Shown here one piece after another: positions 36,301 to 59,620 of a stretch of DNA of 64,000 bases. The first letter of the stretch is position 1. Every line of letters begins with the position of its first letter. The notes beneath the pieces were generated by a model. That model was not told the origin of the DNA, searched no databases, and worked only from the letters and a program-made list of their open reading frames with translations. The DNA is from Promethearchaeota archaeon (GTDB lineage Archaea > Asgardarchaeota > Lokiarchaeia > Sigyniarchaeales > SOKP01). The stretch spans positions 64,001-128,000 of the forward strand of contig JAHLWP010000007.1 in the NCBI GenBank assembly GCA_019057865.1, read 5' to 3'. The position numbers were made by a program, and so were the translations under genes.

Positions 36301-36933
36301 ACGTTTATATGGTTCTAATTGAAATATATTTAATCCTTCTTTATTAGAACCTAATAACTTGATTGTATCAATTAAAGAATCGTTAGTGTCTTCCTCAAAA
36401 ATAATATTTTTAGCTGAGCCATGGATCTTATGTAGTGAAAATCTTCCACTTTTCAACAATTTGATAGGGTCACTAAATTTTTTAAAATCTTTTTCAGTAA
36501 TGGCAGTAACTATCCTTTTTTTCATCACATTAGACTGTAATAGAGCATATTCGATTAAAAAATCGAAATTCGTAGTCATAACAAAAGCCCCTTTCTTAAT
36601 CATTTCTGCAATAAAATAGTGCTGAATATTTGGTTTATCGCATAATCCATAATAGTCAAAAATCATTAGTGCCTCATCTAAGCAATCACGAATAATATCT
36701 AAAATTGTTTCAAGTCTTAAGTTTTTTAATTTTAGGATTTTCTCTATCTCTGATTTAGCACAACTATACTTAATGATGTTTTTTATCATTTCATTGCTGG
36801 CTGGTAGACATGAAGGTGGGTCGACAGAACAACCAGCACCTATTAGAAATGTTAAATCTTCACCTTTTTTCAATAAATCACGTATATTGAGCTTCGATTC
36901 ATTATTTACAGACGTCATTTTTTTCGCACTCAT
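33343..36933 (-). CDS. SIR2-like domain fused to about 20 TPR repeats
   Basis: FLIGAGCS, TTNFD, KIHGS, VGYS in the N-terminal ~300 aa; ~40-aa TPR units (GNL..KA..L..IG..Y..Q..Y..AL) through to the C-terminus. Confidence 0.88.
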   Translation of the reverse strand: MSAKKMTSVNNESKLNIRDLLKKGEDLTFLIGAGCSVDPPSCLPASNEMIKNIIKYSCAKSEIEKILKLKNLRLETILDIIRDCLDEALMIFDYYGLCDKPNIQHYFIAEMIKKGAFVMTTNFDFLIEYALLQSNVMKKRIVTAITEKDFKKFSDPIKLLKSGRFSLHKIHGSAKNIIFEEDTNDSLIDTIKLLGSNKEGLNIFQLEPYKRPLFDNITNKRSLIIVGYSGQNDNDIIPTLKVLMNLRNIIWINHIGEEGKEEIYEVDAKRIQSLEKLDNVDYILNDIKQINYDVNIYRVNTNTTKLFEDLLDIKPEISKENFSINTSDWFKENLKTIDDIIKSTISYKIYFFLNEYNEALGCLKELISVSEESGNLSLRATLLNKIGLIYKDQEKFPEALNSFEEALQIVETTKNFKGKAMNKGNIGVIYHSQRNYTKALEYFNEALKIDEKLKNFARIAYDLNNLGQIYQEQGNFNEAILKYEDLIKIYNKLGNLREKANTLRKIGNILNIQHKYSDSLDAFQEALKIYEELGDLIGKSNSKLKIGTIFRRQGYHRKAIKEFGEALPLFEKLGNLEGKAECLFNNGLIYTNQWNLTKAINQFQEALNIIEQTGNLEDKTRLIFNIGNIYKKQKNFPAALEQYENALQIIDELGIIEGKASILKKTGSIYVKQKAYPKAIRRYEKILEISEKLSRLGDNAAYLNKIGLTYREQGNYKEALKRFEDALTIYLDLKNDVGYADSINNIGVIYLDQGNYPEALSRFEEALNVYEQQGNLKGKAKALINLGLIDQDQGNYSDAFKKFEETLNIYEKMRNLEGKTIAITNIGLNYLYQINYDMAIKNFEEVLLISEQLEDLSMNAKILKTIGNVYLDQVNYPEALRWFDEALFIAEDLENFEEKAKILEVIGNVYQYQERYDEALKQYENILQVAEKLGNLEMKANILETIGNIYQYQEKYDDALNQYEKGLEIDDELGNLPGRAKRLVNIGEIYQIQKRYSRALTQYEAALKINEQVGNLKDKANSIKNIGMIYFNQRRFDEALERSEEAFRIFEHLENNEGRIETLENLGLIMSEQKSYEEALRYYEEGLNLSENQNDIKAKANFLNKIGSLYMDQEIYRKSLKYFEEAIEDFSILGDLEGRAEVLHSIGLIYKNQGKKPKALKQFDEALKVLEKIGASKSSLAGIIKKNADTLKSQLK

Positions 36934-38370: not shown

Positions 38371-39273
38371 TTAAATCCCTCTACTCTGCAACCATCCTTC
38401 CATAGTTAGTGAGTTGAAGAGACGAATATGTTTTGAATCTTTAGTATGAATTGTTAAATGATTCTTCTCAGAATTTCCTTTAACAGCAATGAGCATTTCC
38501 TCGCCATCTCTCACTATAACATATCTATCCTCACGTTCATAACTTCTTAGAGAAATGTTATCAAGACTAGTAAATTCATCTAATAATTCAGAATGTTCAT
38601 CTATTCCAGGATTAATTAAACAAGAGATCCTCATATTTACAGACGACTTCACTTCATAAAGATATAACTCTTGTAAATCAACAATAGTAGGAACGACAAT
38701 CATGACATTGTGCAAACCTTTTTCTAGAATTTCTCTCATTTTTATAAGAATTTCAGATTTTGTAATTTCAGTTTTGGTGAAATCAATGATTTTTGAACCT
38801 GATAAGCTTGATTGTGCTTGTCTTAATTTCTCATTTTCTAATTCTAACGTCTCTAAATCGACATCTGCCTTAGATAATTCATCATTTAAAATTTCTATCT
38901 CTTTTTGGAGTTTGTTGATTTTTTCATCTTTTTCTTTAAGAAGATTTTCATCAGTTATAGATGATGCCTGTGCTTTCAACTCCTCCTCTTTTAATTTAAT
39001 TGTTTTTCCTAATGTTGCTATTTTTTCATCTTTAGCTTTTATTTGCTGATCTTTTAATTCTAATGAATCACGAATAGTCTTTATTTGATCATCCTTTAAC
39101 TTTATTGAATCTTTAAGAGAATTTATAAGGCTATCTTGAGTTTGAAATTTTTCATTTAATTTATTTATAGATTCTCCAACTTTTCTTAATGTTTCGTCTT
39201 TTTTTTCAATTTCAGCTTGTAGCTTATTGATGAGTGCGTCTTTAGATTCATCATTTACCATTATGATATTCAC
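38371..39273 (-). CDS. Coiled-coil + PLD-like (TrmB effector-like) domain protein
   Basis: Repetitive KDxQI heptads; C-terminal VMIVVP...YVIVRDGEEMLIA, similar to the 5173..7173 domain. Confidence 0.6.
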   Translation of the reverse strand: MNIIMVNDESKDALINKLQAEIEKKDETLRKVGESINKLNEKFQTQDSLINSLKDSIKLKDDQIKTIRDSLELKDQQIKAKDEKIATLGKTIKLKEEELKAQASSITDENLLKEKDEKINKLQKEIEILNDELSKADVDLETLELENEKLRQAQSSLSGSKIIDFTKTEITKSEILIKMREILEKGLHNVMIVVPTIVDLQELYLYEVKSSVNMRISCLINPGIDEHSELLDEFTSLDNISLRSYEREDRYVIVRDGEEMLIAVKGNSEKNHLTIHTKDSKHIRLFNSLTMEGWLQSRGI

Positions 39274-39506: not shown

Positions 39507-40244
39507 ATGGAAAAACACGATAATATGATAAAAGAATTAGAATCGGATGTCTCTGAACTGATAGAAAAAGAACTTCAATCGGCACCAGCCATTCTAGGTA
39601 TTAATGTTGGAACGCCTGAAGGAACTAGAATTGCGAGTAAATTCAAAAAAGAGATAAAAATGTCGATGAGTGAAGTAACGGCCGCTAGTAGTAGCCTTGT
39701 TTTTCTATCATCAAAAATTTTGAAGGATTCATTAAACCAAAAGATTTCTTATCATTTAATTACTGGAAAAGAAAAAATAATCCATTCTATTTTAACAGAA
39801 AACATTACGATGATTTCCTATCTGAATCGAGAATTAGCAGAACTCGAAGGACTAAGTATTTACATAAATAATTTATATAAATTAAGTCTACGGATATCAG
39901 CAATTATTGAAACTTCGGATATCCTCAAAGAACAAGTTTTTGTAGCTATAAAGAGAGCAATTCCTAACGCACTTGTTATAGCTATTATTACAAAAGACGG
40001 TTTACCCATTAAAATTCAAGCAACTATGCCTGAACCTATACTATCAGCTATTACTTCCGCAATATACAATTTAGCTGGTGTTTTATTAGAAGAAGGGTTA
40101 GAGTTTTCGATAATTGGAGGAGAAAACGGTTCAATTATTATTCATGAACTAGATGAGAATCGTATATTGGCAATGGCAGTTCCAGAGGCAGATGAAAGAA
40201 AGTTAGGTTCTTATATTGCGAAAATTAAGTCTATAATTCAATAA
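39507..40244 (+). CDS. Tandem Roadblock/LC7 (MglB-like) domain protein
   Basis: Two repeats: GTPEGTRIAS...VTAASSS and ITKDGLPI...LSAITSAI...GENGSIII. Confidence 0.85.
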   Translation: MEKHDNMIKELESDVSELIEKELQSAPAILGINVGTPEGTRIASKFKKEIKMSMSEVTAASSSLVFLSSKILKDSLNQKISYHLITGKEKIIHSILTENITMISYLNRELAELEGLSIYINNLYKLSLRISAIIETSDILKEQVFVAIKRAIPNALVIAIITKDGLPIKIQATMPEPILSAITSAIYNLAGVLLEEGLEFSIIGGENGSIIIHELDENRILAMAVPEADERKLGSYIAKIKSIIQ

Positions 40245-40254
40245 TGTTTAAAAT

Positions 40255-41499
40255 TTAATGAATAATATTTTTAATTTTATCTATTATCTTTATAGCACCA
40301 AAATAAGATTCTGAGAAATTCTTTCCCTTAAATAAGATCGTACATAAAGGTTCTTCTTTTAAGATATTCTTAATGGGTTCAGTTTTATCATAAACAAATT
40401 CAATATTATTAATTTTATTCAATAATTCTTTATTTATTTCTTTTGGAGCAAAAAATATTAATTTTGTAGCAAATCCAGTTGCTTGTGCTGATCTAATTTT
40501 ATTTTTTACAATATCCCATCTTTTCGGATCAAAACTTTGAACATGTAAATCTAAAAGGTTTAAATCTAAAACTTTTTCAGAAGCTCTAATACTACCAGGA
40601 ATTCGTGGATTTATTTCCATTAAATATGGATAATGGTTTTTTAACACAAAATCAAATCCATTAATACCTTTTAAACCTAGTTTTTTTGTTAAAATTAATG
40701 AAATTTCAGAAATTAGTTTGTTATCCTCTTTTAATAAATTTGCTGGCACAATATTTCCACAATATACAAAATCTCCTGGGGGATTGAGAAATTTTTCTCC
40801 AATTATTTGGCGGTTAATAGAAATAATTTCGCATTCAGCACCATTGGATATAATAGTGCAACTTACAGGTATTCCTTCAACAAATTCTTGAATTAACCAA
40901 TCTGATGGGTTAAATTCTTTTACTTCTAATTTATTTAAAAGAAAATTTAATTTTTCCTTATTTTCAATTTTAAAAACATTTATGCCTCCCGCGCTCCTCT
41001 TTTTTTTTAAAATAATAGGAAATTCAAATGTTACATTATTTTTAAAAAGCTCATAAGAAAGAGATAAAGGAACCTTAAATCCCTTAGAGCTGAGATAATC
41101 ATAGACTCTTTCAATATCTCGAGATTTTTTAATGATTTCTAAATTATTATTAACATTTTTCACGTCTAACTCTTTTTCTTTGATTTCTCTTAAAATGAAA
41201 TCTCTTCCTTCATAATCATCATCTAAACCACTCCCAATTAATAAATAATTGATGTCATTATGTTTTCTTAGCATTTCTACTGTAAAATGTACTAAAAATT
41301 CACTGTATTTATCTTTTAGAAATTCATAGTTAGACTCTAACTCCTTTGTAATAATTATATAATCCTTAACATAAGGATATAGATCTAAATCTCCAAAAAA
41401 ATCTACTGTATATACTTCATAATCCGCTATATGCAAAGATTTAGCTAAAGGTCGAGTATTAAATCCTACTACCAAAATTGAATTTATTTTTACAACCAT
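40255..41499 (-). CDS. ATP-grasp ligase (archaeal COG2232-like)
   Basis: GFNTRPLAKS, DFFGDLDL, SAGG, IQEFVEG, GFDF, EINPR. Confidence 0.85.
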   Translation of the reverse strand: MVVKINSILVVGFNTRPLAKSLHIADYEVYTVDFFGDLDLYPYVKDYIIITKELESNYEFLKDKYSEFLVHFTVEMLRKHNDINYLLIGSGLDDDYEGRDFILREIKEKELDVKNVNNNLEIIKKSRDIERVYDYLSSKGFKVPLSLSYELFKNNVTFEFPIILKKKRSAGGINVFKIENKEKLNFLLNKLEVKEFNPSDWLIQEFVEGIPVSCTIISNGAECEIISINRQIIGEKFLNPPGDFVYCGNIVPANLLKEDNKLISEISLILTKKLGLKGINGFDFVLKNHYPYLMEINPRIPGSIRASEKVLDLNLLDLHVQSFDPKRWDIVKNKIRSAQATGFATKLIFFAPKEINKELLNKINNIEFVYDKTEPIKNILKEEPLCTILFKGKNFSESYFGAIKIIDKIKNIIH

Positions 41500-41542: not shown

Positions 41543-43747
41543 TTAAAGAATTTTCTTCAATTCTAATATCAAAGAAGAAGGATTATACTTATCAAATTTA
41601 TATACTTCTGCATTACCAAATTTTTTAAAGTTCTTTTTAATGTTATCTGCTGAATAAGTATGTACTCCTAAAGCCTGAGTAGCGTAAGATTTTTTTGGTT
41701 CTAATACAACTATATGGACTTTTTGTTTTGATAATTTTTTTGTTAAATCCTTCAATTCTTCAGTTACTAAGGCATAATCATTCTCAACTTGTGCAATTAA
41801 ATCAGGATATTTTACTGAAATATTGGCTCCACAGTCAGAAAATATAAAGATTACCGGGATAATATTTCGATTCTTTAGTTTCTCTGCTTTTATTAAATCT
41901 GAACATTTCTTTAATGCTGCTGCCATTGGAGTATAAGATTTTCCCTCTATTCTTTTCAATTTATTTACAGCGCTTTTAAAATTAACTGTAGGTTTTTGGA
42001 GAACAATTGCTTCTTTCCCTCTAAAAACAATTAAAGCAATTTTATCCTTTTTACGATACCCTTCTTTATGGAGAGACAATATAACGTCAGTCATTTGCTT
42101 TATTACATAATGCATTGATGCAGAACTATCGAGAACGAAAAAGAGAATTAAAGGAGCACGGTATTCATAAATTTTGTCCATTAAATCATATTTGTTAAAG
42201 TGTATTGGAAATTCAACGTCAGTTTGATTATATACTTTGTTTTTCAAATAATTTCTTATAGTTGCATCTAAAGCAATACTTTTTGGAAGTAGATTGATTG
42301 GCCTCCTATATGAGACATATCTCCCTTTTTGTGAAGATGATATTTTAATCCGCCTTCCTATACCTCTTCCTCCATAATCAGAAATTTTTCGATCTTTTCT
42401 AATATTATCCAATATTGAGGTCATTTTTTTTTCCATTTTATAAATAAATGTCCTATTACTTAATTTGTCCTCAAAAAATCGAAAGTCATCTTTTTCTCTA
42501 GGAATATTTTTTACTTTCCATCCTCCTGCAGGTTTAGGGCTCCTTTTTTTGTTATCAGGGTATTTAGGAGGGGGTAGTTTCTGTTCCTTTGTTTCAGGTA
42601 TATCAACTTTTTTAGGATCTACCGACTGACGTTTAAATTCCTTTTGCGGAGTATCGTCATGTTTTAAAGGACCTTCTGTGTCTTTATTAGGACGGTATGC
42701 TTTTGGGTCCTCATAGGCTTTCTGAATTTTACCATAGACTTCCGCAATTTTAGCCTTCACCTCCTTAGGGGTCATTTCGTAATGAAGTGATAGAATTCTA
42801 TGCTCAAACACTAAATCCATTGCCACATCTAAGTCTTCTTCAGTAATGATTTTCCTATCACTAAAAGCGGCATGAGCTCTAGCACACCGGATGAATGTTA
42901 TATCTGCTCTTTGAGAAAAGATTTCTAACTCATTAACTATTTTAGAAACAAACTCGTAAATAGAAGCGGGAATCTGGACTTCTTGAAGAATTTCTCGTGC
43001 TCTTACAATTCTATGTTTTAAAATCTCTTGTTCACTTTCATAGCATTTAATAAATTCTTTAGGATTATCATCAAATTCAATGACTTTTTTTGTTATTTCA
43101 GCTCGAAGTTTATTATCTCGAGGAGCTTTTATTCTAACTTCCAATCCAAGACGATCTGCGATCTGGGGTCTTAATTCACCCTCTTCAGGATTCATACTAC
43201 CTACTAATACAAATCTTGAAGGATGTGTAACAGAAATTCCTTCTCGCTCAATGATATTTATACCTGAAGCTGAAGCATCTAAAAGAGTATCAACGATATG
43301 ATCTTGCAGTAAATTAATTTCATCAATATATAAAATTCCTCTATTTGCTTTAGCTAATAATCCAGGATGAAGCTCTGATGTTCCCTCTGTTAATACACGA
43401 TCAATTGATAAGGAACCGCAAACCATATCTTCTGTTACACCAAGAGGGAGGTTAACCAATCGCATCTCTCGAAATTCAATTTCAATTTCCTTTTTCTTTT
43501 TCAATCTACAATCCTCACAAAGATCATCAATATTAGACTTAGGATTACAAGAAAACTGACAATCTTTAACAACTTCAATATCTGGCATTACTTCAACCAA
43601 AGATCTTACAGCAGTAGATTTTCCCGTACCTTGATGTCCCGTTAAAAGCACTCCTCCAATTTGGGGATCGATGACATTTAGTATTAGTGACATCTTCATC
43701 TTATCTTGTCCTAATATAGCAGTAAAAGGATAATTAATTTTTTTCAT
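41543..43747 (-). CDS. Mg-chelatase ChlI/ChlD-like AAA+ ATPase fused to vWA domain
   Basis: YPFTAILGQ, Walker A GHQGTGKS, Walker B LYIDE, GSMNPEEG; Pro-rich linker; MIDAS DSSAS. Confidence 0.9.
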   Translation of the reverse strand: MKKINYPFTAILGQDKMKMSLILNVIDPQIGGVLLTGHQGTGKSTAVRSLVEVMPDIEVVKDCQFSCNPKSNIDDLCEDCRLKKKKEIEIEFREMRLVNLPLGVTEDMVCGSLSIDRVLTEGTSELHPGLLAKANRGILYIDEINLLQDHIVDTLLDASASGINIIEREGISVTHPSRFVLVGSMNPEEGELRPQIADRLGLEVRIKAPRDNKLRAEITKKVIEFDDNPKEFIKCYESEQEILKHRIVRAREILQEVQIPASIYEFVSKIVNELEIFSQRADITFIRCARAHAAFSDRKIITEEDLDVAMDLVFEHRILSLHYEMTPKEVKAKIAEVYGKIQKAYEDPKAYRPNKDTEGPLKHDDTPQKEFKRQSVDPKKVDIPETKEQKLPPPKYPDNKKRSPKPAGGWKVKNIPREKDDFRFFEDKLSNRTFIYKMEKKMTSILDNIRKDRKISDYGGRGIGRRIKISSSQKGRYVSYRRPINLLPKSIALDATIRNYLKNKVYNQTDVEFPIHFNKYDLMDKIYEYRAPLILFFVLDSSASMHYVIKQMTDVILSLHKEGYRKKDKIALIVFRGKEAIVLQKPTVNFKSAVNKLKRIEGKSYTPMAAALKKCSDLIKAEKLKNRNIIPVIFIFSDCGANISVKYPDLIAQVENDYALVTEELKDLTKKLSKQKVHIVVLEPKKSYATQALGVHTYSADNIKKNFKKFGNAEVYKFDKYNPSSLILELKKIL

Positions 43748-43917: not shown

Positions 43918-44865
43918 TCAAAATTTTGATAAGTCATCAATTCTCTGGTCTAATTTAGAAATAACTTCATCCCAATTAGATAAGATTTCTTCTACTTTAG
44001 GAATAACTATATCTCTTTCCTTATATTCTAAATAATCTAAGAACTCTTTAATATTTTCAATTTTCATAAAAGTTTCTGCAACATACTTGCGAATCTCGGA
44101 TTTTTGATTATCTAGAACTTCAGGAACTCTGTTGTGTTCCCCACGTCGTATTAATGTCGCTATATATTCTTCTGTTCCTTGCAAAAGGGAATTTAATTGA
44201 TTTATCCGTTCCATGATAAATTTTTCATAGGACTCAAAAATTCTATCTTTTGGGAAAAAATTAGTAATATCTATGATAAATTTCTGGGTTAGCTTAACTA
44301 ATTGCTCCATACTTTCATATCCTTCAATTATATAATCAACAGTATGATAAGATGCTTCAATACCTTTATTAACATCATTCAATCTAAAAATTTTAAAACC
44401 AGGATCATTTTTTAATCGCTTTTCGGGATCCCCTTTTTTGTCTGCTACCTCGATTTGACGTATTAACCTTGTTGGATTAAATACGAGAGAAACTGCTAAT
44501 GGATTATTGGTTTGATAAGACAATGTGGTTTTAATATCTATGTGGCTCATCATTACTTTAAAACCGGGATGAGAATGCCACCAACCTACTGTAAATTCTT
44601 CTCGAGAAAACGCCTTATCATCAATAATATATAAAGCTTCATAATCTTCATCTGACCATTTATATTGGTCGATAACGGCATCCTTATCGAGTTTTTGATG
44701 CATAATGGGATAGGCTGCAGCAATCATTATGTCATCACCTTCATTTTTACCAATAAAAACACCACTTACTTCAAGCCAATCATCTTTTAGGATTTTCTGG
44801 TTAGCAAACCTCACAGTGGCAGCAACAATTGTCAAATAAACTTTCTTAGGGATGATTACTACCAT
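43918..44865 (-). CDS. MPN/JAB metalloprotease (JAMM intact) with helical C-terminus
   Basis: EVSG and WWHSHPGFKVMMSHID = E...HxH-x7-S-x2-D. Confidence 0.9.
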   Translation of the reverse strand: MVVIIPKKVYLTIVAATVRFANQKILKDDWLEVSGVFIGKNEGDDIMIAAAYPIMHQKLDKDAVIDQYKWSDEDYEALYIIDDKAFSREEFTVGWWHSHPGFKVMMSHIDIKTTLSYQTNNPLAVSLVFNPTRLIRQIEVADKKGDPEKRLKNDPGFKIFRLNDVNKGIEASYHTVDYIIEGYESMEQLVKLTQKFIIDITNFFPKDRIFESYEKFIMERINQLNSLLQGTEEYIATLIRRGEHNRVPEVLDNQKSEIRKYVAETFMKIENIKEFLDYLEYKERDIVIPKVEEILSNWDEVISKLDQRIDDLSKF

Positions 44866-45031: not shown

Positions 45032-45685
45032 ATGTCATTAAATTTTGAACCATTAACAAGTCAATTGGGTGTTCCTGGGACTTCCTATAGACTTCAATTA
45101 GGATCAATTAATGGGAAATGGGCTTGTAGATTATTGAAGGGAAAAAATGTAATTGATTCTTATGTATTCAAAGATGAAGATGTGCTAGATGATATTCCTA
45201 ATCAAAATCGAATTGTTTCATGGGTCTTAATGACTGTAGCTATTCCAAATATAAACCCTCATCAAATTATGAAAACAACGCAGGCCTTGGTCAAACAAGC
45301 ACTCAAAAAGAAGGAAGAAAGAAAAGCAGTAGCACCCATATCTGAAACAAAAAAAGTAGAGTTAGAGAGAGTTCCCGAAAGTGAATTGAAACGACCTAAA
45401 GTGGCTGGATGGGTTAAAGAAGAGGGAATGAAAACAGTTCAGGAATTAGAAGATGAAAAACGACAAGCATTTAAAGAAAGGATGATCCATAAAAGGGAAG
45501 AAGAAAGAACTCGAGAGGCTTCTACTTTAAAAACTTCAAGAGAATTACCATCTATTCCTACAGGTGCAGGTGGAACAAATGTATCTGCTGGTGCTGAGGT
45601 ATCAAAATTTTGTCCATTTTGTGGAAAAGATTTAAACTGGAAATTTTGTCCTAATTGTGGGAAACCTCTACCCCATGAAGATTAA
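45032..45685 (+). CDS. Hypothetical protein: beta-rich N-terminal domain, charged helix, double Zn ribbon
   Basis: C-terminal FCPFCG...FCPNCG. Confidence 0.75.
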   Translation: MSLNFEPLTSQLGVPGTSYRLQLGSINGKWACRLLKGKNVIDSYVFKDEDVLDDIPNQNRIVSWVLMTVAIPNINPHQIMKTTQALVKQALKKKEERKAVAPISETKKVELERVPESELKRPKVAGWVKEEGMKTVQELEDEKRQAFKERMIHKREEERTREASTLKTSRELPSIPTGAGGTNVSAGAEVSKFCPFCGKDLNWKFCPNCGKPLPHED

Positions 45686-45826: not shown

Positions 45827-47302
45827 TTGACATCTGATAAAACTGTCATCATTAAACCACTCGCGTATTATAAAATGCTCATTCATGTTTTACGTTTTGG
45901 TTCTAAAGTAAGAGATCGCAAACAATATAAAGAGGTAATGGGGATCTTAATTGGTCGTCTTGAGTCAGGAGAACCTGATAAAAAAGGGATCAATGATGTA
46001 ATTGTGGAAGATGCAGTACCAATTTCCCATGGCGGCTCAATAGAAGTTGATTTTGCCCCAGAAGATTATGTAACATTCTCCATGGTAGATGCAGAATTTG
46101 CAGAAAAAGGATGGTTTAGTGTAGGGTGGTACCATTCACACCCTGGTTTGAAGATATTCTTTTCGAGTACGGATATAAAAAACATGCTTGGTTGGCAGAC
46201 TCCGAACCCAAGCGCTATTGGAATTGTCTTCGACCATACTTTCTTAGAAAAACCCGGAGATATGGGATTTCGCGCATTTAGATTAGATGACACTTCTAAA
46301 GGCCAAACAACAGGGTATCATGAAGTAAGAACTGTAGTCGAACCTCCAGATAGTCTTGAATATTACCAAAGACTTATGGAATTAATTAACAGTGTTCACT
46401 CTAAAGAACCGCCAATCTTAGAACTTAATGAATTGCCTGACTTATTTGGTGATATTGCTATTCCTAGTCAAGATCAATTAATAACTAAAAAACCAGAATT
46501 AGAATTAACTAAAATATTTTCTGCTATCCAGAATGGAATATCAAGTTTTTTAGAGTTGACAATTGAACCATCTGTTAAATTTCTTAATACGTGGAGTCAA
46601 GAGATGATTAGAAAAACCATTGAATCTAATTTAGAAATGAGAAATAACATTTTAGCTATAAAGGAAAAGATTGGAAATGGTATCTCTAATATACAAAAAG
46701 ATTTTAAATTTTCCTTAAAAGATAAATTGAATCAATTAGATATGTATATCGATGATAAATTTGATGAATTTGATAATAACAATGAAAATCTTAAAGAAAT
46801 TATAAGTCAAATTAAAATTGAACTTAATGATAAATTGAAGGTCATATTTGAAGAAAAGCTAAAGGTTTCTCTAGATCAAGGTATAAACTCGTTTAAAGAA
46901 AATCTAGAAAATTTAACAAAAATAAATCAAGAAAGTTCTATTTTTATTGAAAAATTAGAAGGTGAACGCAAGTCTCTAAATAATGTATCAGAGAATATTA
47001 ATTCTATTGAAGATTCAATCAACAATAAATTAAAGAATATACAAGACGAAGTCATAAATAAACTATCCAAAAACACTAATAAAATTGTTGGAAATTTTAT
47101 TAATTTAAATAAAGACACAAAGAGTTTCTTATCAGATTTAAAAGCCGCAATTATATTACTGGAAAGTTCAAAGAATCCTATACAGAATAAGATAAAAATC
47201 TTAGAAACAGAAAATAAGACCCTCCAAAAAGATTTATTAGAGTTGAAAAATGAAAATCAAGATTTAATGATTAAATTAAAAAAATATGAAGGAGGAGAAT
47301 AA
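45827..47302 (+). CDS. Rpn11/CSN5-like MPN+ metalloprotease with long coiled-coil tail
   Basis: VIIKPLAYYKMLIH...EVMGILIG...GWYHSHPGLKIFFSSTD: complete JAMM motif; C-terminal half is heptad-rich. Confidence 0.92.
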   Translation: MTSDKTVIIKPLAYYKMLIHVLRFGSKVRDRKQYKEVMGILIGRLESGEPDKKGINDVIVEDAVPISHGGSIEVDFAPEDYVTFSMVDAEFAEKGWFSVGWYHSHPGLKIFFSSTDIKNMLGWQTPNPSAIGIVFDHTFLEKPGDMGFRAFRLDDTSKGQTTGYHEVRTVVEPPDSLEYYQRLMELINSVHSKEPPILELNELPDLFGDIAIPSQDQLITKKPELELTKIFSAIQNGISSFLELTIEPSVKFLNTWSQEMIRKTIESNLEMRNNILAIKEKIGNGISNIQKDFKFSLKDKLNQLDMYIDDKFDEFDNNNENLKEIISQIKIELNDKLKVIFEEKLKVSLDQGINSFKENLENLTKINQESSIFIEKLEGERKSLNNVSENINSIEDSINNKLKNIQDEVINKLSKNTNKIVGNFINLNKDTKSFLSDLKAAIILLESSKNPIQNKIKILETENKTLQKDLLELKNENQDLMIKLKKYEGGE

Positions 47303-48715
47303 TTGAAAATGCCTGAAAATGAATTAAACAACAATAAGGACAAAAATGAGAAAGATCAAACCATTCCAACGAAAAATAGACAAATAATAATAAAAAAAGA
47401 AGCTTTCAGGAATATGATAACCCATGTTTTAAGATTTGGAAGCATTGCATTAGAAAAGAGTGTAGAGGTTATGGGCATTTGCTTAGGAGAATTAACTGAG
47501 AATGAGAAAGACATTGTTTTAATCAATGCTATTCCGATTACTCATGGAAAAAAAGTATCAGCAGGTTTTACTAAAGACGATTATGATTTATTAACTCAAC
47601 TTGAAAAACAATATCAAAAGAAGAATCTTAATATTGTAGGATGGTATAGTTCACACCCCGGGTGGGGTCTTTATTTTTCTGACTTAGAGATAAAAACTCA
47701 TCAATTTTTTCAAAAGGAAAGTAATCCTAACGGATTTTTTGTTGTTTTTGATCATACTTTAATGGATAAAGATAAGACTTTTGGTTTTGAGATTTATAGA
47801 TTTGATGATTTTAAAAAAGCAGATAAATATCATAATGTAGTATTTGAAATTGAAGAACCAGCAACCCTAGATTATTTTAAATGGGTTCAGAAATTTGTAG
47901 AAGATTTTCAAAAACAGACATCTATCTTAATTAAAGAAATTAGTGAATCAAAAGAGTCAATTCCGGGTGAATTACAAGAAATACCAATATCAGAGGAAAT
48001 ATCACCAGAAGAAGAATTTGATGATTATTCACAAATTTCACCGATAATTTCAGGATTTCAAAAAGGAGTGTCTAGATTTTCTGAATCGGTGATAGATACC
48101 TTCAAGTCTCAATTTGGAGATTGGACCAATGATCTTAAAGAAGGATCTTCGAAAGGTTCAGAATATTTACGTAATAGTGTAAATAAAATGAAAGAGGCAG
48201 CATCTCAGAGTCTTATTAAAGTAGAGAATTGGTTTAAAAAAAATTTAGATAGTATGTTAAACGAATTTAAAGAAACTGTGGTTAATTATGTAGATAATAG
48301 AGTTGAAGCTCAGACTGAACTCAGAAATGATCTCAATAATATAAAAAATGATCTTTTTAATGATTTAAATATCGTTGTTGATGAAAATTTAAAATATATT
48401 AAAAGTGAAATAGCATCTGTTGTTAAATTAACAACTGAAAAAGTAAATAATAGCACTCAAATAAATTCTAAGATTGAAGAGATGATTGGCAGTATTTCTA
48501 AAGTAATCTTAGCAATTGAAAATGAATCAAGTGATCTAGGTAGTAAAATAGAAAAAAATATTGAAACAACGATTGATCAATTTGAAACAAGTATTAATGA
48601 AAAAATTGAAAAAATGAGTTCAGAATTACAACCATTTAAAGAATATTACTTAGAAATTAGTGAATTGTTAGAAAAGTTACAAAAAATAATCACAGATTTT
48701 CGCATGAAGATATAG
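47303..48715 (+). CDS. MPN- (catalytically degenerate JAMM) paralog with coiled-coil tail
   Basis: EVMGICLG...GWYSSHPGWGLYFSDLE: His1->Ser and Asp->Glu; abuts the upstream stop, with GGAGG RBS inside the upstream gene. Confidence 0.88.
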   Translation: MKMPENELNNNKDKNEKDQTIPTKNRQIIIKKEAFRNMITHVLRFGSIALEKSVEVMGICLGELTENEKDIVLINAIPITHGKKVSAGFTKDDYDLLTQLEKQYQKKNLNIVGWYSSHPGWGLYFSDLEIKTHQFFQKESNPNGFFVVFDHTLMDKDKTFGFEIYRFDDFKKADKYHNVVFEIEEPATLDYFKWVQKFVEDFQKQTSILIKEISESKESIPGELQEIPISEEISPEEEFDDYSQISPIISGFQKGVSRFSESVIDTFKSQFGDWTNDLKEGSSKGSEYLRNSVNKMKEAASQSLIKVENWFKKNLDSMLNEFKETVVNYVDNRVEAQTELRNDLNNIKNDLFNDLNIVVDENLKYIKSEIASVVKLTTEKVNNSTQINSKIEEMIGSISKVILAIENESSDLGSKIEKNIETTIDQFETSINEKIEKMSSELQPFKEYYLEISELLEKLQKIITDFRMKI

Positions 48716-49258: not shown

Positions 49259-49543
49259 TTAGAAAAATTTCAAGTTTGAAACTTTAGAAATTTGTAATCT
49301 ATATTTCGGAATGTTAGTATTCAATCGCTTTAAATGATTCAATTTAGCGATTTTGCCTAAAACTCTTCCGATTCTGTCAACTTTAACGTCAATTCCAAAA
49401 TTTTCTTTAAGAACTGAATTAATTTTATAGGACGATAATATAACAACACGTGAGATATTTTTTTCACATAACAACTCAATTGCTTTTTTTACTAAGCTAA
49501 TTAGAGTTTCTTTATTATCTATCTTAATTTTTTCCATTCTCAA
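49259..49543 (-). CDS. Small basic winged-helix-like protein
   Basis: Helix-turn-helix-wing pattern (SSYKIN...VDRIGRVL...PKYRL). Confidence 0.5.
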   Translation of the reverse strand: MRMEKIKIDNKETLISLVKKAIELLCEKNISRVVILSSYKINSVLKENFGIDVKVDRIGRVLGKIAKLNHLKRLNTNIPKYRLQISKVSNLKFF

Positions 49544-49674: not shown

Positions 49675-49827
49675 ATGTCTGATAAGCAATCTAATTCTGT
49701 TAATTCTCTAAGAAAATCAAATATATCTAAAGAACAAAAAAGTTCAGAAACAGAAATAAAATTACTCAAATTAAACCGTCATATTTATCACATACTTCAA
49801 AAATTGGGAGGCGTAGGTTCAAAATGA
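49675..49827 (+). CDS. Small 50-aa protein translationally coupled to the downstream membrane protein (not in ORF track)
   Basis: MSDKQSNSVNSLRK...HILQKLGGVGSK; its TGA overlaps the next ATG (ATGA) and it contains the GGAGG RBS. Confidence 0.5.
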   Translation: MSDKQSNSVNSLRKSNISKEQKSSETEIKLLKLNRHIYHILQKLGGVGSK

Positions 49828-52172
49828 AAAAAAGAGAGTCTTTATCGACCCTTCGAACAAAAATTGCAGCCTTTAAGTCAAGAACAGGTGAAAAATTAAA
49901 GGTATTTGCGGATAAACTTGTTCACAAGGAAGTCTATGTTGATGGGCAAGAACCTCCAAAATCTTATTCATTTGAAAAAAAGTTCTTTGGCTTATATTTC
50001 ATTTTTATAATATCTTCTTTTGTCTTAATATTAACAATTAACATTTCACAAAAGAATTCTATAAATACAGTAATTTTTGCTATTTCAAATGCAATTGTTG
50101 CATTCTTTCTAGTACTATCTGGATTGTTAAGTATAGATAGATTTAGAATTTTCTTATTTGAAGAAAAAACTTTAATTAAACAACTTATTCTTTATTCAGG
50201 TTTATTTACTTTACTTATTCCCGTTTCTTTTTATATCTCAACAGATATTAACTTTATTACGTATTTATTGATTTTCGCAATGATATGGTTATTTCTTCTA
50301 AGTAGCAAATTCTATATTTATTCTAGGAAATTTGCTACAAAAATTGAAGCTAGATTTATTAAAAAATATTCTATCCTTAGATATCTTGTCGCAATTATTA
50401 TCCCCTTTTTAATATTAGGTGTTCTTGTTATTCTTTCACTATTTTATAGGACTTTTTTAGTGTGGCTCTCATTGGATTTCTTTGGAAATAGTGATCCTAG
50501 TTCTGCTGTTGCTGTATATAATCTAGAAATGCGTGTAGTTATGCCGCTAATTTATTTTAGTTTGGTATTAACATTAGTATTTATAATTTTTGAATTTGTT
50601 TTTACTAGAAGGCGTGCAGAAACAAAAAGAGCTGGAACTTTTGATAATTTTACTTTTTCTTTAATTGTTTTATTCATCTTTTTCTTTCAAATTTTACAAA
50701 TCAGTATCTTTATGTTATTAAGACCAGAAACAATAGATGCCTTTAAAGCAACGGTAGGAGTTATTGGCTCGCCTGTCGGTTATATTATAATTTTTGAGTC
50801 TGTCATTTCTATGTATTTTCTATATAGGGTTATTAAAAAAACTGGTAGAACATTAGGTTGGCGTATCTTTATATTTAAGAAAGATGGATTAATTTTGTTC
50901 TTTTTAGCATGTGTCCTCGCTCAAACTATGACACGTTTTGCACTAGCAAATGAAATAGCAAATCAAGAAATAACTCCAATAGGAACATTGTTAATGGCGG
51001 ATAAATATGTAATTTCAGTATTGATGATTTTTCTCTTAGGTAGTACTTTATTAGTCTATTATATAAAACCTCATGAGACTTCAATGTTCATGAGACTTCA
51101 AAAAGAATTAGTATATGATGAAGAAAAGAATATTGAAAAAATTTATAACATTATAAGAAGTGAATATATCCGGAGGGGAGAGGCTTTTCCAATTGAAATA
51201 CTTGAACGTGAATTAATTAAAGCAACTCGACTATCAAAAGGTAATGTTTACTCTCTAGTTGAGCAATTAGCGATAAAAGATATGGATATTCTGATAACCG
51301 AGAGAAAAGAAGAATTTGGAACACCCGTAAAATTTATAGATTTCACCTCTGTTACCGAACGATTTGATAGAAAAGAAATAGCACAAGAAAAAGCTAAAAA
51401 ATATTTAACCAAAAGATTATATGAAACAAGTTTGGCGAAAAGGAGTGAAAAAAGCAGATTAAAAGCTGTCAGCGAATCAGAAAAAGCTTCAGATCAACTT
51501 ATTACCTCTCTTACTGCAAATTATACAAAAAAGCAAGTAGATGAACGAGAAATTGAAAAAGTAAAAGAAGAAGCAAAAGTAACAGAAGATTTGAGAGTAA
51601 AGTTAACAGATGCTTTAAAAAATCAACTATTACAAACGATTAAAAATGAATACTTCTATAGGATTGAGAACAATGATAAATATTTAGACTTTTATGTCCC
51701 TATTTCTGAAGTGTCAGATCAAATTGAATTAAATACGAAAATCACTCCTGGAGAATTATATCCCATTTTAGAAAGTCTCAGTATTATTGATTTGGAATTG
51801 ACTCTAATTGATAATCCTGATGAACCTGAAGATAAGAAAATCAAATTCTTACCCTTTGCTGATGATAATATGAACTTTTCTTTAGCAAATTTTCGACCAG
51901 AAGAGTATGCTAAATTTAAAATTAATGTAATTAAAAATTTTCATAGAGCTCTTAAAACTAAGAAAGAAAAAAGAAGTTTATTTCAGTTGAAAAAAGGGAT
52001 TTCAGATAAATTCGAAGGTCAAAAATCATGGCTTAGTTTATTAGATAATTTATATAGATATTATCCTTTATATACTGAAAAATTATCTTCTGTTCCTAAT
52101 ACAACAAAACTTAGAAATCAGTTGAGGAAAATGGAAGAATTTTATGAAAGAAAACATAACTTAAACAGTTAA
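49824..52172 (+). CDS. Polytopic membrane protein (~11 TM) with large cytoplasmic tail carrying a duplicated wHTH-like module
   Basis: Hydrophobic to about aa 415; repeats IIRSEYIRR...PIEILERELIKATRLSKGNVYSLVEQL and TIKNEYFYR...PISEVSDQIELNTKITPGELYPILESL. Confidence 0.7.
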   Translation: MKKRESLSTLRTKIAAFKSRTGEKLKVFADKLVHKEVYVDGQEPPKSYSFEKKFFGLYFIFIISSFVLILTINISQKNSINTVIFAISNAIVAFFLVLSGLLSIDRFRIFLFEEKTLIKQLILYSGLFTLLIPVSFYISTDINFITYLLIFAMIWLFLLSSKFYIYSRKFATKIEARFIKKYSILRYLVAIIIPFLILGVLVILSLFYRTFLVWLSLDFFGNSDPSSAVAVYNLEMRVVMPLIYFSLVLTLVFIIFEFVFTRRRAETKRAGTFDNFTFSLIVLFIFFFQILQISIFMLLRPETIDAFKATVGVIGSPVGYIIIFESVISMYFLYRVIKKTGRTLGWRIFIFKKDGLILFFLACVLAQTMTRFALANEIANQEITPIGTLLMADKYVISVLMIFLLGSTLLVYYIKPHETSMFMRLQKELVYDEEKNIEKIYNIIRSEYIRRGEAFPIEILERELIKATRLSKGNVYSLVEQLAIKDMDILITERKEEFGTPVKFIDFTSVTERFDRKEIAQEKAKKYLTKRLYETSLAKRSEKSRLKAVSESEKASDQLITSLTANYTKKQVDEREIEKVKEEAKVTEDLRVKLTDALKNQLLQTIKNEYFYRIENNDKYLDFYVPISEVSDQIELNTKITPGELYPILESLSIIDLELTLIDNPDEPEDKKIKFLPFADDNMNFSLANFRPEEYAKFKINVIKNFHRALKTKKEKRSLFQLKKGISDKFEGQKSWLSLLDNLYRYYPLYTEKLSSVPNTTKLRNQLRKMEEFYERKHNLNS

Positions 52173-54041: not shown

Positions 54042-56924
54042 TTACTCAATCACTTCCATAGGTTTTCCGTGATGTTCTGGGATTTGCTGAGCACCACAAG
54101 ATGCACCCATCCAACAGACTAACTGGTCACCTTCCTTATGCATAGGCTTACCACAATGCATTGGAAGTTCTTGTTCTACTCCACATTCCACACATTTTAA
54201 TTTTCCCATTTTTTTATCAACCTCTTTTTTATTTACAGATTTAACATACTTTTCATTAATACTTTTCATTTGCATTAATTTGGGATTCATATTATCATAA
54301 TTCTTAAATCTTTCTGGATCACGTTTAAAGTGAGTTTCACAGTTAGGATTACAAAAGTGATATAGTTTCCCCTGATATTCATACTCAATAGCGCGTCTTG
54401 GATCAATTTCCATTCCGCATACAGGATCAATTACTTTTTCTTGAGATACAAGTAAACGTTCCTCTTCAAGTTGTTGAGGTGTTTTTGGTTCGAATCTTTT
54501 TAAGAACAAAGCATTGGTCACCACAGAAACAGAACTAGTAGCCATGAAAACTGCTGCTAAATAAGGAGGTAAAAAGAATCCTGTTAATCCATATAAAATA
54601 CCCGCCGCAATAGGAAGTCCTATGATATTATAAATAAATGCCCAAAATAGATTCGTAATCATTTTTTTATACGTTTTTTTAGATAAATTAATAGCAGAAA
54701 CCACATTTCTAAGGTCACCTCGCATTAGAACGATATCTGCAGTCTCAATTGCTACATCCGTACCAGATCCAATAGCAATGCCTACATCTGCTTGGGCTAA
54801 AGCTGGTGCATCATTAATTCCATCACCTACCATACCCACAATTTTGTGATCACCCGATTTTTGTAGTTTCTGTATAGTTAAAGCTTTATCATTTGGAAGA
54901 ACCTCTGCTAATATGTGTTCCTCGTCAATTTTTAACTGATTTCCTATACTTAACGCGGTTTGCATATTATCACCAGTTAGCATATAAATGCTTAATCCAA
55001 TTTCTCTTAATTTATTTAAAGCGTATGGAGCTTGATCTTTAATCTTATCAGAAATTCCTATAATTCCTCTAACAACATTTTCTATACTTACTAAGATTGT
55101 CGTTATTCCTTTTTGCTGAAATTCTTCAAATTTGTCCTTGTATTTAAAGATCGAAATATTGTTTTCAATCATTAATTTTTCATTCCCAATCAATACTACT
55201 TTTCCTTTAATGTTAGTTCTGATACCTTTACCAAGGATAGCATCAAATTCAGTCGGAGCTTCAAGAGATAACCCTCTTTGATTTGACTCCTCGATAATTG
55301 CTTTTCCAATTGGATGTTCAGAGCCCATTTCTGCGCTCCCAGCATAAAATAAAAGTTCTTTTTCGTCATAACCTTTTCCAGTTAAATCTTTTTCAGCAAA
55401 AATTACCGAAACTTTTGGTTTTCCAACGGTTAAAGTGCCAGTTTTATCGAATACGACTGTATTAATAGTATTAATGGATTCTAAGGAATCTCCACCTTTA
55501 ATTAATAAGCCACTTTCAGCACCTTTGCCAGTACCAACCATTACAGCGGTTGGAATTGCCAATCCTAAGGCACAGGGACAAGCAATAACTACAACTGAAG
55601 TGAATACTAATAAAGATGTCTCAAGTTGAGTTGCTTCGAGTGCTGGATATAATTGAGTACCAATGAAATACCAATAAAGAAACGCGCTAACAGCAATAAT
55701 AATGACTATAGGTACGAAATAATTACTAATTTTGTCAGCTAATTGCTGCTTAGCAGCTTTTCGACTTTGAGCTTGTTTTACAAAATTGATGATTTGAAAT
55801 AATAATGTATCTTTTCCAACTTTTTCAGTTATCATATGAATTAAACCAGTTTGGTTTACTGTTGCCCCAATTACTTCACTATCAAGCTCTTTTTTAACAT
55901 ATTTACTTTCTCCTGTAATCATAGATTCATCTATTTTAGTTTTTCCCACAATTACTCTCCCATCAACTGGAATTTTTTCTCCTGGTCTGACAACTAACAC
56001 GTCTCCAACTTCAATTTCTTCAATAGGAATCTCTATTTCCTCGCCATCTTTTAAGATTGTTGCGGTTTTCGGTTGCAATCCTACTAATTTTTTTATAGCT
56101 TCAGATGTCTGCCCTTTAGTCTTATGCTCAAGGTATTTTCCAACTAATAAAAAAGTGATTATCAAACTCATTGCTTCATAAAACACTTTTCCTGATATAA
56201 AGAAAGTGGTCATTATTGAGTAAATAAGTGCAGTCGTTGTCCCTAAAGCAACTAACACATCCATGTTAGTAGTTTTATTTTTTAATGATTTATATGCTCC
56301 GATTAAAAAAAACGACCCTGAAATAACGTAATTTGTTATCCCCAAAAAGAAAAGAAGGATGTTTCTTTCAAACGATTCTGTCACAAACCAACTTATAGGT
56401 GCAATTATTAGTGAAAATATTAATGATATTGCCATGATGCGTAATCGATATCTCATTTCTTTCTTATGTTTTATAATTTCCATGTCCATAGCTCCAGCAG
56501 ATTTCTCAATGTTATAATCTAGTTGTTTAACTTTAGAATATACTTGGTTTTCATCTATAACTAATTCATTAAATTCAATGAACATCTTAGATGCTTTATA
56601 ATTTCCCCTGATGTCATGAATTCCTTCGACCTCTTTTATACTATTAATAAAAATTTCAAATTCATTTTCTGAAAGTTTATCTACAACTCTTATATCGATT
56701 TTGGCTAAGGATGCCTTGTAACCAAGATCTCGAATTGCTTCTTTAAAGTTATTGAAATTAGTTATATTTGGATCATATTTGACTGTCGCTTCTTCATTAG
56801 CAAAATTAACAACTGCATTCTTCACACCATCAAGACTACTCAATTTATTCTCAATTTTTAAGGCACAATTAGCACATGTCATTCCACCAAGCTTAATATT
56901 TACATTTTCTTTTGTTTCTGCCAT
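54042..56924 (-). CDS. copA: Cu(I)-exporting P1B-1 ATPase with N-terminal HMA, C-terminal YHS domain and extra Cys/His module
   Basis: [38 protein letters not shown], MxxSS; YHS DPVCGM...FCNPNC. Confidence 0.95.
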
Positions 56925-57538
56925 TAAAAATCACCTTTTTTCATATTTCTAGATAACAAATTTAATAATTATACCTTTTGTTTATATTTTGAAAGATTTT
57001 TAAATCATATTTTTTGAGACTTGTAAAAAAATCTTATAGATTTGTTATTTTTTAAAAATAAAATTTAGAATAAAACCTGATTACTTATAAACAATTAAAA
57101 TAACATATTTTTTTCATAACATTTTTTTAAAAATTTTTTTAAAAATCTTAAACTTTCTTCTTACAATAAATATTTCTATAAACTTAATTTTTTTTTAAAT
57201 TTCTAAAAACTTTTATCTCATTTTATAGTTTCTTGTTTCAAAATGAAAATTTAATAATACACCCTCCACCTTGATTCTAATTGTCAATTATTGAGTTATT
57301 ATTAAAAAAATCCGAGATTGAAACAAAAGTCTCTATTTTTTAGTTTATAAAATTATTTTGACGTAATATTTAAAATTATGTAGTAAAGGTGTTCTTAAAA
57401 CTATTATAAACCCAGAATAATAATTTTTTTACAACCTTTATCAGGTTGCTTAGTTCTACTCCTTTGTAGTTAATAAGAAGATATGAAAAAGAAAATAAAA
57501 TGATAATAATTAACTAAATTATCTCAATTTTTTATTTC

Positions 57539-59620
57539 TTATTTCTTTAACTTTAGAAATCTTGCATTAATGGCAACGATAACCGTGCTTAAAGACATAA
57601 GAATTGCCCCAATTGCAGGAGTAATTAATACTCCGAGACTAAATAGAACTCCTGCGGCAAGCGGAATCGCAAAAACATTATAACCTGTTGCCCATATAAG
57701 ATTTTGAATCATTTTCTTATAGGTTGCTTTTCCAAATCCTATAAGAGAAGTTACATCTCTTGGATTACTATTTACGAGAATGATGTCAGCAGTTTCAGCT
57801 GCAACATCAGTGCCTGATCCAATTGCAATTCCTACATCTGCTTGAGCTAAAGCAGGAGCATCATTAATTCCATCACCAGTCATTGCTACAAATTCACCTT
57901 TAGATTGTAACTCTTTAACCTTTTCTAACTTTTCATGAGGAAGTACTTCAGAATAATATCCATCAAGACTTAATTCCTCTGAGACGGCTTTAGCAGTTTT
58001 TTCATTATCACCTGTTAACATCCAACATTTAATATTCATAGATTTTAAATTCTTAATAGCATCATGAGATTCTTCACGGACTTGATCAGAAAGACTAATA
58101 GCCCCGATTAATTTATTCTCACCCAAAAGCACAAATACGACAGTATCTATTGATCCTCTTCTCAAATTTTTTGGGATCGGGATGTCTAGGGCTTTCAAAT
58201 AATTTGGACTAATAACACTAACAAGTTCTCCATTGATAGTTCCTTCAACACCTTTTCCCTTGATAGCTTTAAAATCCAAAGGTTGTTGTAGGGTAAGATT
58301 CATTTTATGTGCTTTTTCTACTATTCCCTTTGCAATTGGATGCTCAGAATTTTGTTCTAACGAAGCTGTTAGTTGAATAATTTTCTGCTCATCATAATCA
58401 TTATCAAAGGATTGTATGACATTTACACCAAAAGCACCCTCTGTTAAAGTTCCCGTTTTATCAAACAAAATGGTGGAAATTTTTCTAGAAGCTTCGAAAG
58501 CTGTTCGATTTCTAATCAATAAACCACTTTTTGCAGAGAGGGCAGTCGACATTGCCACTACCAGAGGTATCGCTAATCCAAGCGCGTGTGGACAGGCAAT
58601 AACCATTACTGTTGCCATTCTCTCAATTGAAAAATTAAAAGACTCTCCAATAGATAACCAGATAAATAAGGTGGTGAATCCAACAGTCAAGGCTATAATA
58701 GTAAGCCAAAAAGCAGCTCTATCAGCAAGTCGTTGAGTTTTTGATTTGGAGGCTTGTGCTTCTCTCACTAAATTAATTACTTTTGATAAATATGAATCCT
58801 TCCCTGTACTTTCTACTTGAATTTCAAGAGACCCATCACCATTAACAGACCCCCCGATAACCAAGTCTCCACTCTCCTTTTCAACTGGTACTGATTCTCC
58901 TGTTAACATGGACTCATCAATATAGCTCGAACCTTTTAAAATTAATCCATCGGATGGTATTTTTTCACCAGGCCTTATTAAGACATTGTCTCCTTTTTTT
59001 AATTCACTAAGCTCTACGTCAATGATCTCTCCATCTCTTATTTGATGAGCTGTCGATGGCATTAACTCCACCAACTTTTCTAAAGCTCGAGACGCTCCTA
59101 AAATTGATTTCATTTCGATCCAATGCCCTAAGAGCATAATATCAATTAATGTTGCTAATTCCCAAAAAAAAGGATCTCCTTCTAATCCCAAAACAGTAGC
59201 AGCACTATAAAAGTATGCGACAGAAATAGCTACCGCAATCAATGTCATCATTCCAGGAGCTTTTTTCCTTAACTCGTTCACAAGACCTTTAAGAAATGGC
59301 CATCCTCCATAAAAGAAAATAAAGGATGCCATAATCAGTAATACATAATCTAAACCGGGAAATGTGATACTCACTCCTAACCATCCTTGTATAGTGGGAG
59401 ATAATATAAGTATAGGAATAGTAACAATTAGTGAGACATAAAATCTTCGCCGAAAATCTTTTATCATCATTCTATGGTGAGCAGATTGATCCATATGTCC
59501 TTTATGTTCAGCTTTATTCGAACTATGAGTATCATGAGAATTTATTCCATTCATATTTTTATCTGATACTACAGTGGGTTTATCTTGTTTTTTTTCTTTA
59601 ACTTTATTATTATTTTTCAT
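57539..59620 (-). CDS. copB: P1B-3 copper ATPase with His-rich N-terminus
   Basis: His/Met-rich N-terminus; CPHALG, DKTGT, GYN, MSLST. Confidence 0.93.

Follow-up and report, generated by a model that had tools for sequence, protein, structure and literature searches.

Several eukaryotic complexes are built on two MPN-domain proteins, one with an active JAMM site (MPN+) and one without (MPN-). BRCC36-Abraxas and BRCC36-ABRO1, which form the cores of BRCA1-A and BRISC, each join an MPN+ and an MPN- subunit carrying one helical tail apiece, and BRCC36 requires its partner for activity (PMC9313428). A similar logic of active plus inactive MPN protein is found in Rpn11-Rpn8, CSN5-CSN6 and eIF3h-eIF3f. 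This MPN+/MPN- organisation has been described as not known in archaea (Fuchs et al., PMC6043591), and we found no account of the gene pair described here in the literature searched. The pair lies in a 64,000-nucleotide (nt) stretch, hereafter the window, from a Promethearchaeota archaeon (Lokiarchaeia, Sigyniarchaeales; GenBank assembly GCA_019057865.1, contig JAHLWP010000007.1, positions 64,001 to 128,000). It consists of gene A (45827-47302) and gene B (47303-48715), both on the forward strand, which an initial annotation made from the sequence alone had put forward as a candidate archaeal MPN+/MPN- heterodimer.

We favour, at a probability of roughly 0.6, a tandem-duplicated and stalked A-B heterodimer in which A would be an obligatory isopeptidase and B a non-catalytic partner whose active site has decayed repeatedly.

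Results

The A-B gene pair and its active sites

Gene A encodes an MPN+/JAMM protein of 491 amino acids (aa; Pfam JAB, E 3.5e-12). Gene B encodes a paralog of 470 aa with a degenerate site (Pfam JAB, E 7.4e-16), or of 468 aa if read from an alternative in-frame ATG at 47309. The two open reading frames (ORFs) abut as annotated: the TAA of A occupies 47300-47302 and the TTG of B follows directly at 47303. A GGAGG that had been read as a ribosome binding site (RBS) inside A is present at 47291-47295 (+), 7 nt ahead of the TTG in the 3' end of A. It is a candidate RBS for B, but because the same bases encode Gly-Gly near the A C-terminus, the motif is not independent proof of that function. Homology between A and B extends through the tails, with 414 columns aligned by hhalign (probability 100%, E 2e-73) and 27% pairwise identity in BLAST (E 2e-44), and the motifs listed earlier as common to both are real. 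A conserved stop read-through giving an A-B fusion was considered and rejected: the two frames are in register in this genome, but many orthologs are out of frame.

Gene A has a complete site. Catalytic Glu36 (45932-45934) and the zinc motif H103-x-H105-x7-S113-x2-D116 (46133-46174, +) make up the full ExnHxHx7Sx2D signature, of which the earlier wording "x6-SSTD" is another rendering, and all five residues (E36, H103, H105, S113, D116) are invariant in the A ortholog alignment. Gene B carries the degenerate motif S116-x-H118-x7-S126-x2-E129 (47648-47689, +). Two of its three zinc ligands are altered, as first described, by H116S (codon AGT at 47648) and D129E (GAG); E55 (47465), H118 and S126 are retained. 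These changes are not sequencing errors, because the independent relative L002 carries the same AGT codon and the same Glu, and the initial annotation was right on this point as well. The source genome has eight MPN genes, and the seven besides B are all intact. We regard B of this genome as a putative MPN- pseudo-enzyme: its fold is kept and its zinc ligands are changed, and it is presumably inactive, although Glu129 could still bind metal.

The pair is restricted to part of one Lokiarchaeia order. The A profile matched at E <= 1e-45 in 126 of the family's 134 genomes, and full-length A orthologs occur beyond it in 4 of 14 sister-family genomes and in the sole genome of a third family; three sister-family genomes assembled as single contigs yielded no A-B pair. 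Records that NCBI labels 'Hodarchaeota' (L052) and 'Bathyarchaeota' (P0052) appear to be Lokiarchaeia under the wrong name, and the two proteins of L052 are identical in lengths, scores and motifs to those of G085 of the source genus. Adjacency of A and B, whose conservation the initial annotation had proposed to test, is conserved: the first ATG of B lies <=30 nt from the A stop in 77 of 88 pairs.

Loss of the B site across relatives

All 87 complete A orthologs keep the site intact. An apparently broken A in G095 falls at an assembly gap and was set aside. The B site behaved differently: of 96 orthologs, 35 have a complete site, 16 differ only in the catalytic Glu (mostly Gln instead) and 45 lack at least one zinc ligand, and the dead orthologs show 29 different patterns. 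The general description of an active gene paired with a degenerate paralog therefore holds. The particular H->S/D->E changes, which the initial annotation had proposed to test for conservation across Asgard genomes, are not conserved: they occur only in the five-member clade of the source genome, whose sister clade is mostly intact. Retention of HxH...D by most B orthologs, which the initial annotation held would count against its proposal, was found within the source genus (20 of 30 genomes) but not family-wide.

Unlike that of Rpn8, CSN6 or Abraxas, the dead state of B is not fixed across orthologs. Under the assumption that a lost site is not regained, the B tree requires 7-15 losses and a tree from A alone requires 8-16. 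B is intact in early-branching lineages, and the sequences point to an active ancestral B whose site was lost many times over, not to a fixed pseudo-enzyme.

Dead B heads gave ratios of nonsynonymous to synonymous substitution (dN/dS) of 0.09-0.31 in 13 close pairs, with 0.11-0.25 in the clade of the source genome, compared with 0.04-0.16 for A. These ratios indicate that dead B is under purifying selection. Conserved elements of dead B include the post-MPN helix, a P-I-x-I-x-E strand and a B-specific, near-invariant LQEIP (224-228). B does evolve faster than A (~50% against 60-64% identity to the same congeners), as might be expected if it were a degenerating duplicate or the product of sequencing errors. 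We give that explanation almost no credence, since all complete B orthologs have an open frame of nearly fixed length, dN/dS is well below 1 in dead lineages and the same substitutions appear in independent genomes.

The B site takes nearly the same dead form, [IL]-S-R-P-x-W-G-[LP]-D-F-T-[DE]-[IV]-T, in two distant lineages, one comprising L019 and L022 and the other L107-L109. Recent recombination was considered as a source of this twin site and left no sign: synonymous identity is ~50% in the site, equal to that of the flanks, although an old exchange is possible. Parallel selection for a new pocket is another possible origin, judging from these sequences.

Selection of that kind would suit a reading in which A and B work independently of each other, perhaps each as a homo-oligomeric stalk. 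B would then be a non-catalytic binder of ubiquitin-like protein (Ubl) tags or of some other ligand, and the linkage of the two genes would reflect co-regulation and synteny. The twin dead site, with no excess of synonymous identity, hints in this direction, as does the LQEIP motif peculiar to B, and the whole neighbourhood is syntenic across the family (genes C and D, an AAA-vWA gene, a small protein and a membrane protein, all described below). We nevertheless consider separate action rather unlikely. The A-B junction is kept at <=30 nt over three families while other neighbours change, and the predicted complex of A and B scored above all controls (see below). A second, shorter tandem pair, A'/B', in two sister-family genomes (L162:4195-6274 and L164:456-2634) again has an intact first copy and a degenerate second copy.

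Predicted structure and pairing of A and B

In AlphaFold2 models, A (mean pLDDT, the predicted local distance difference score, 79.6) has an MPN head plus helix at residues ~1-192, a 58-residue linker and a continuous helix at 242-488 (~37 nm, at 0.15 nm per residue). The B model (pLDDT 77.7) has an MPN head, a further helix, an acidic linker and a continuous helix at 246-469 (~33 nm, computed in the same way). The tails are thus predicted as single helices of 225-245 residues. They align in register (hhalign), and the last ~65 residues of the A tail reach past the end of B. Of 81 A orthologs, 80 have a 58-residue linker, and the B tail measures 190-199 aa from a conserved Trp. Both proteins had been credited with long coiled-coil tails; both have long helical tails, but the first ~130 residues follow an 11/3 hydrophobic pattern (period 3.66-3.7) and not plain heptads, to which the ends are nearer.

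The A head was matched by Foldseek at E 8e-13 (probability 1.0), with BRCC36 chains as the top two matches and Rpn11 also among the best. The best matches of the B head were Rpn11 and CSN5, and CsRpn11 was also among the fold matches of the heads. By sequence, Rpn11 and CSN5 are the best matches of both heads, and among PDB sequences the A profile matches CsRpn11 best (58 bits).

The tails raise the alternative that the hetero-complex is mainly structural, serving as a tether, a ruler or a membrane- or lipid-associated rod, with A a protease aimed elsewhere than at ubiquitin conjugates. Over half of each protein is fixed-length helix with 11/3 periodicity, the tails have weak apolipoprotein-like profile matches far under the Pfam cut-off, a membrane protein is conserved downstream and no ubiquitin gene adjoins. 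This alternative appears improbable to us: among solved structures the heads are nearest to Rpn11, CsRpn11 and CSN5, neither A nor B has a transmembrane segment, and apolipoprotein matches are typical of any amphipathic helix.

Complex prediction with near-full-length A and B gave a score of 0.52, compared with 0.00 for the best control; runs agreed in at least 83% of contacts, and partner pLDDT was at least 71. Of 80 solved complexes, 58 attained the pass mark, as did 2 of 110 mismatched pairs, and the passes at a score of 0.60 or below comprised only 7 of the 80 solved complexes and both mismatches. The score lends the proposed heterodimer weak computational support: it may mirror likeness to solved MPN dimers and, with no homodimers among the controls, cannot separate hetero- from homo-pairing. 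The tight coupling of the genes, the fixed in-register tails and the one-sided loss of catalysis are stronger, though indirect, arguments, and we consider an A-B heterodimer likely.

Origin of the pair

A tree of 77 Asgard MPN domains, built under a mixture model and with no eukaryotic sequences, placed A and B in one clade (support 100/96). The sister group (99/98) consists of long-tailed MPNs from another family of the order, which have intact sites and are unpaired. Trees in which B was forced together with Heimdallarchaeia and ubiquitin-operon MPNs were rejected (approximately unbiased test, AU p 0.02). The B profile matched Rpn11 at 53 bits, CSN5 at 49 and Rpn8 at 28. The single long-tailed MPN that other orders carry in E1-E2-MPN operons was tried as the pre-duplication ortholog and rejected, as it sits on another branch of the tree and family f33 proteins are nearer.

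Eukaryotes are thought to branch near Heimdallarchaeia. A search of 83 Heimdallarchaeia genomes, not aimed at dead MPNs, recovered no long-tailed ortholog: the matches covered the MPN domain only, in frames no longer than ~400 aa, and the best scored 117 bits where true orthologs score >400. No match came from 61 genomes of another class. Among proteins of the window, no Pfam match to MitMem_reg, CSN5_C, BRCC36_C or Abraxas was listed, and the first three were also absent from the 25 families most often matched by 81 B orthologs.

The pair had initially been called either ancestral to or convergent with the eukaryotic dimers, and only the second half of that claim stands. An archaeal ancestor of Rpn11/Rpn8-type dimers, with A leading to the Rpn11 line and B to the Rpn8 line, would share their active/dead logic, and the fold matches to BRCC36 and Rpn11 are in its favour. 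It is nonetheless very improbable: A and B are sister paralogs inside the Lokiarchaeia radiation, the forced placement of B is rejected, B is intact in early branches and nearer to Rpn11 and CSN5 than to Rpn8, and neither the eukaryotic tail families nor a long-tailed heimdallarchaeial ortholog appeared in the searches above. Because A and B are each other's sister, occur in a single lokiarchaeial order and are absent from the Heimdallarchaeia genomes searched, sequence comparison identifies the pair as convergent with, and not ancestral to, Rpn11/Rpn8-type dimers. Given this separate origin, A-B does not directly explain the origin of the proteasome lid.

Ubiquitin context

The source genome has Ubl, E1-like and E2-like genes in two operons, each with its own, different MPN+ paralog (L169:831-6168 on contig C41 and L168:3131-5541 on contig C54). 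Ubl precursors are encoded on these two contigs and on C69. Since each Ub/E1/E2 operon has its own MPN, routine processing of Ubl precursors is probably carried out by these paralogs. In another order of the class, a single long-tailed MPN+ gene follows E1 and E2 (L166:5728-11365, also L172 and L173), and ThiF-family and vWA (Ssl1-like)-RING genes adjoin it. Because related long-tailed MPNs sit in such E1-E2-MPN operons, a ubiquitin-like conjugate is, by analogy, the most likely substrate class for A.

Additional dead MPN genes

Two short (~200-250 aa), tail-less and fully dead MPN genes, S1 and S2, occur in tandem at six loci (L033:940-2163, L034:3-1100, L161:5437-6838, L184, L185 and L186). 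In three genomes they immediately precede A-B, and in the other three they lie elsewhere; the order is D-S1-S2-A-B in L033 and D-S1-S2, with no A-B on the same contig, in L184. Neither S1 nor S2 was found in the source genome. Searched against solved structures, the S1 profile gave MPN matches to eIF3h only (E 4e-4). S1 and S2 form their own long branch in the MPN tree, and in layout this dead/dead pair resembles eIF3f/eIF3h.

Of 160 Lokiarchaeia genomes, six, belonging to two families, contain a match to the S2 profile. B is intact in all six, and five of them have a third strong A-profile match. S2 occurs in no dead-B genome, but 29 intact-B genomes also lack it and the six cover about three lineages; the association of S2 with intact B is a lead, not a test. 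It raises a more elaborate possibility, which we regard as doubtful: that A and B make up an obligate stalked heterodimer with deubiquitinase activity, B being the activator of A, and that this dimer is a remnant of a four-subunit archaeal MPN complex (two active stalked subunits plus S1 and S2) in which B repeatedly became a pseudo-enzyme after S1/S2 loss. If true, the family would be an independent and still-polymorphic replay of the eukaryotic MPN+/MPN- origin, with active/active, Glu-less and zinc-less stages alive today.

Neighbouring and other genes

Gene C (43918-44865, -) is divergently transcribed and encodes a third MPN+ protein of 315 aa with an intact site (Pfam JAB). It falls in its own clade (99/96), apart from A+B, and by its sequence is a separate, older paralog. 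Gene D (45032-45685, +) encodes 217 aa with a C-terminal zinc ribbon (Pfam) and is kept upstream of A (55 loci). D and C are probably bystanders of A-B, because they persist together in genomes without A-B (L151, L152). A small conserved protein is encoded 3' of B (49259-49543, -; 56 loci; no Pfam match), followed by a 782-aa multi-pass membrane protein with ~9 transmembrane-like segments (49824-52172, +), which is conserved downstream of A-B (52 loci) and also lies near the pair in one second-family genome (L161). The membrane protein has no Pfam match and no named Atlas match; Atlas searches with it and with gene D each matched only their own unnamed cluster.

A Mg-chelatase-like AAA+-vWA gene (41543-43747, -) and an ATP-grasp gene (40255-41499, -) lie downstream of gene C family-wide. 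Further out are a Roadblock/LC7 protein with apparently tandem domains (39507-40244, +), a coiled-coil protein of no known family (38371-39273, -) and a protein of 1196 aa in which many TPR-like repeats come after an N-terminal SIR2-like motif set (33343-36933, -). On the other side, two P-type heavy-metal ATPase-like genes, recognised by sequence motifs, lie in a metal-resistance region (54042-59620, -). A promoter scan, which relies on a bacterial model, gave counts at chance level, and two metatranscriptome runs shared only 5-6% of words.

The PCI profile PF01399 matched the source genome six times in four ORFs, and its two strongest hits, a winged-helix-repeat protein and a leucine-rich-repeat (LRR)-TIR protein, are not lid-like. 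Two genes outside the window are recorded for their own interest. One on contig C87 (L174:439-2802) encodes 788 aa with tandem winged-helix repeats (PCI, UFL1 and DDRGK profiles) and a weak C-terminal VPS28 match; its sequence makes an ESCRT/UFM1-related fusion possible. The other, on contig C38 (L175:103-2109), encodes an LRR, winged-helix and TIR protein, a candidate defence sensor.

Discussion

In the explanation we favour, A and B would stem from a single long-tailed, Rpn11-like JAMM gene that was duplicated in tandem within one Lokiarchaeia order. The two would be co-expressed and would assemble as a heterodimer or as A2B2, with the MPN heads packed together and the homologous tails in register as a ~33-nm stalk. 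A would act as an obligatory zinc isopeptidase, most likely releasing a ubiquitin-like protein from substrates, and B would be needed for fold, interface and stalk, not for catalysis. Because the role proposed for B is non-catalytic, its active site would have been free to decay, which it did many independent times; that of A never did.

Besides the lack of homodimers among the complex controls, several observations weigh against this explanation. Each tail carries a net acidic charge of about -7, and the two show no overall charge complementarity. CsRpn11 is a monomer and active alone (PMC6043591). In L068, A and B are parted by a real insertion of ~6 kb. A-B is not adjacent to ubiquitin-system genes, and other MPN paralogs occupy both Ub/E1/E2 operons; the long MPN linked to E1 and E2 is not the nearest tree relative of A+B. 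Finally, six state changes in B are enough if regain is permitted, although regain would mean rebuilding several exact residues and is unlikely.

If A and B bind, the family forms a natural series from a symmetric enzyme dimer to an enzyme plus pseudo-enzyme, and addresses whether partner dependence precedes or follows catalytic loss. Close relatives supply active/active, Glu-less and zinc-less pairs for side-by-side comparison.

A-B is organised like BRCC36-Abraxas and Rpn11-Rpn8 but is not a member of either group, as it differs in dead-subunit orthology, in tail domains and in the absence of a fixed dead state. Gene A resembles CsRpn11 of Caldiarchaeum subterraneum in being archaeal and having an intact JAMM motif. 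CsRpn11 is small and encoded beside a Ub-E1-E2-E3 operon (PMC6043591), whereas A-B has a long stalk, a paralog partner and no adjoining ubiquitin genes. Compared with Rpn11-Rpn8 and other pairs of PCI complexes, B is nearer to Rpn11 than to Rpn8 and lacks a MitMem_reg tail. Compared with BRCC36-Abraxas, the tails of A and B are predicted single helices of 225-245 residues, the partners are recent sister paralogs of 27% identity, and the dead state is polymorphic.

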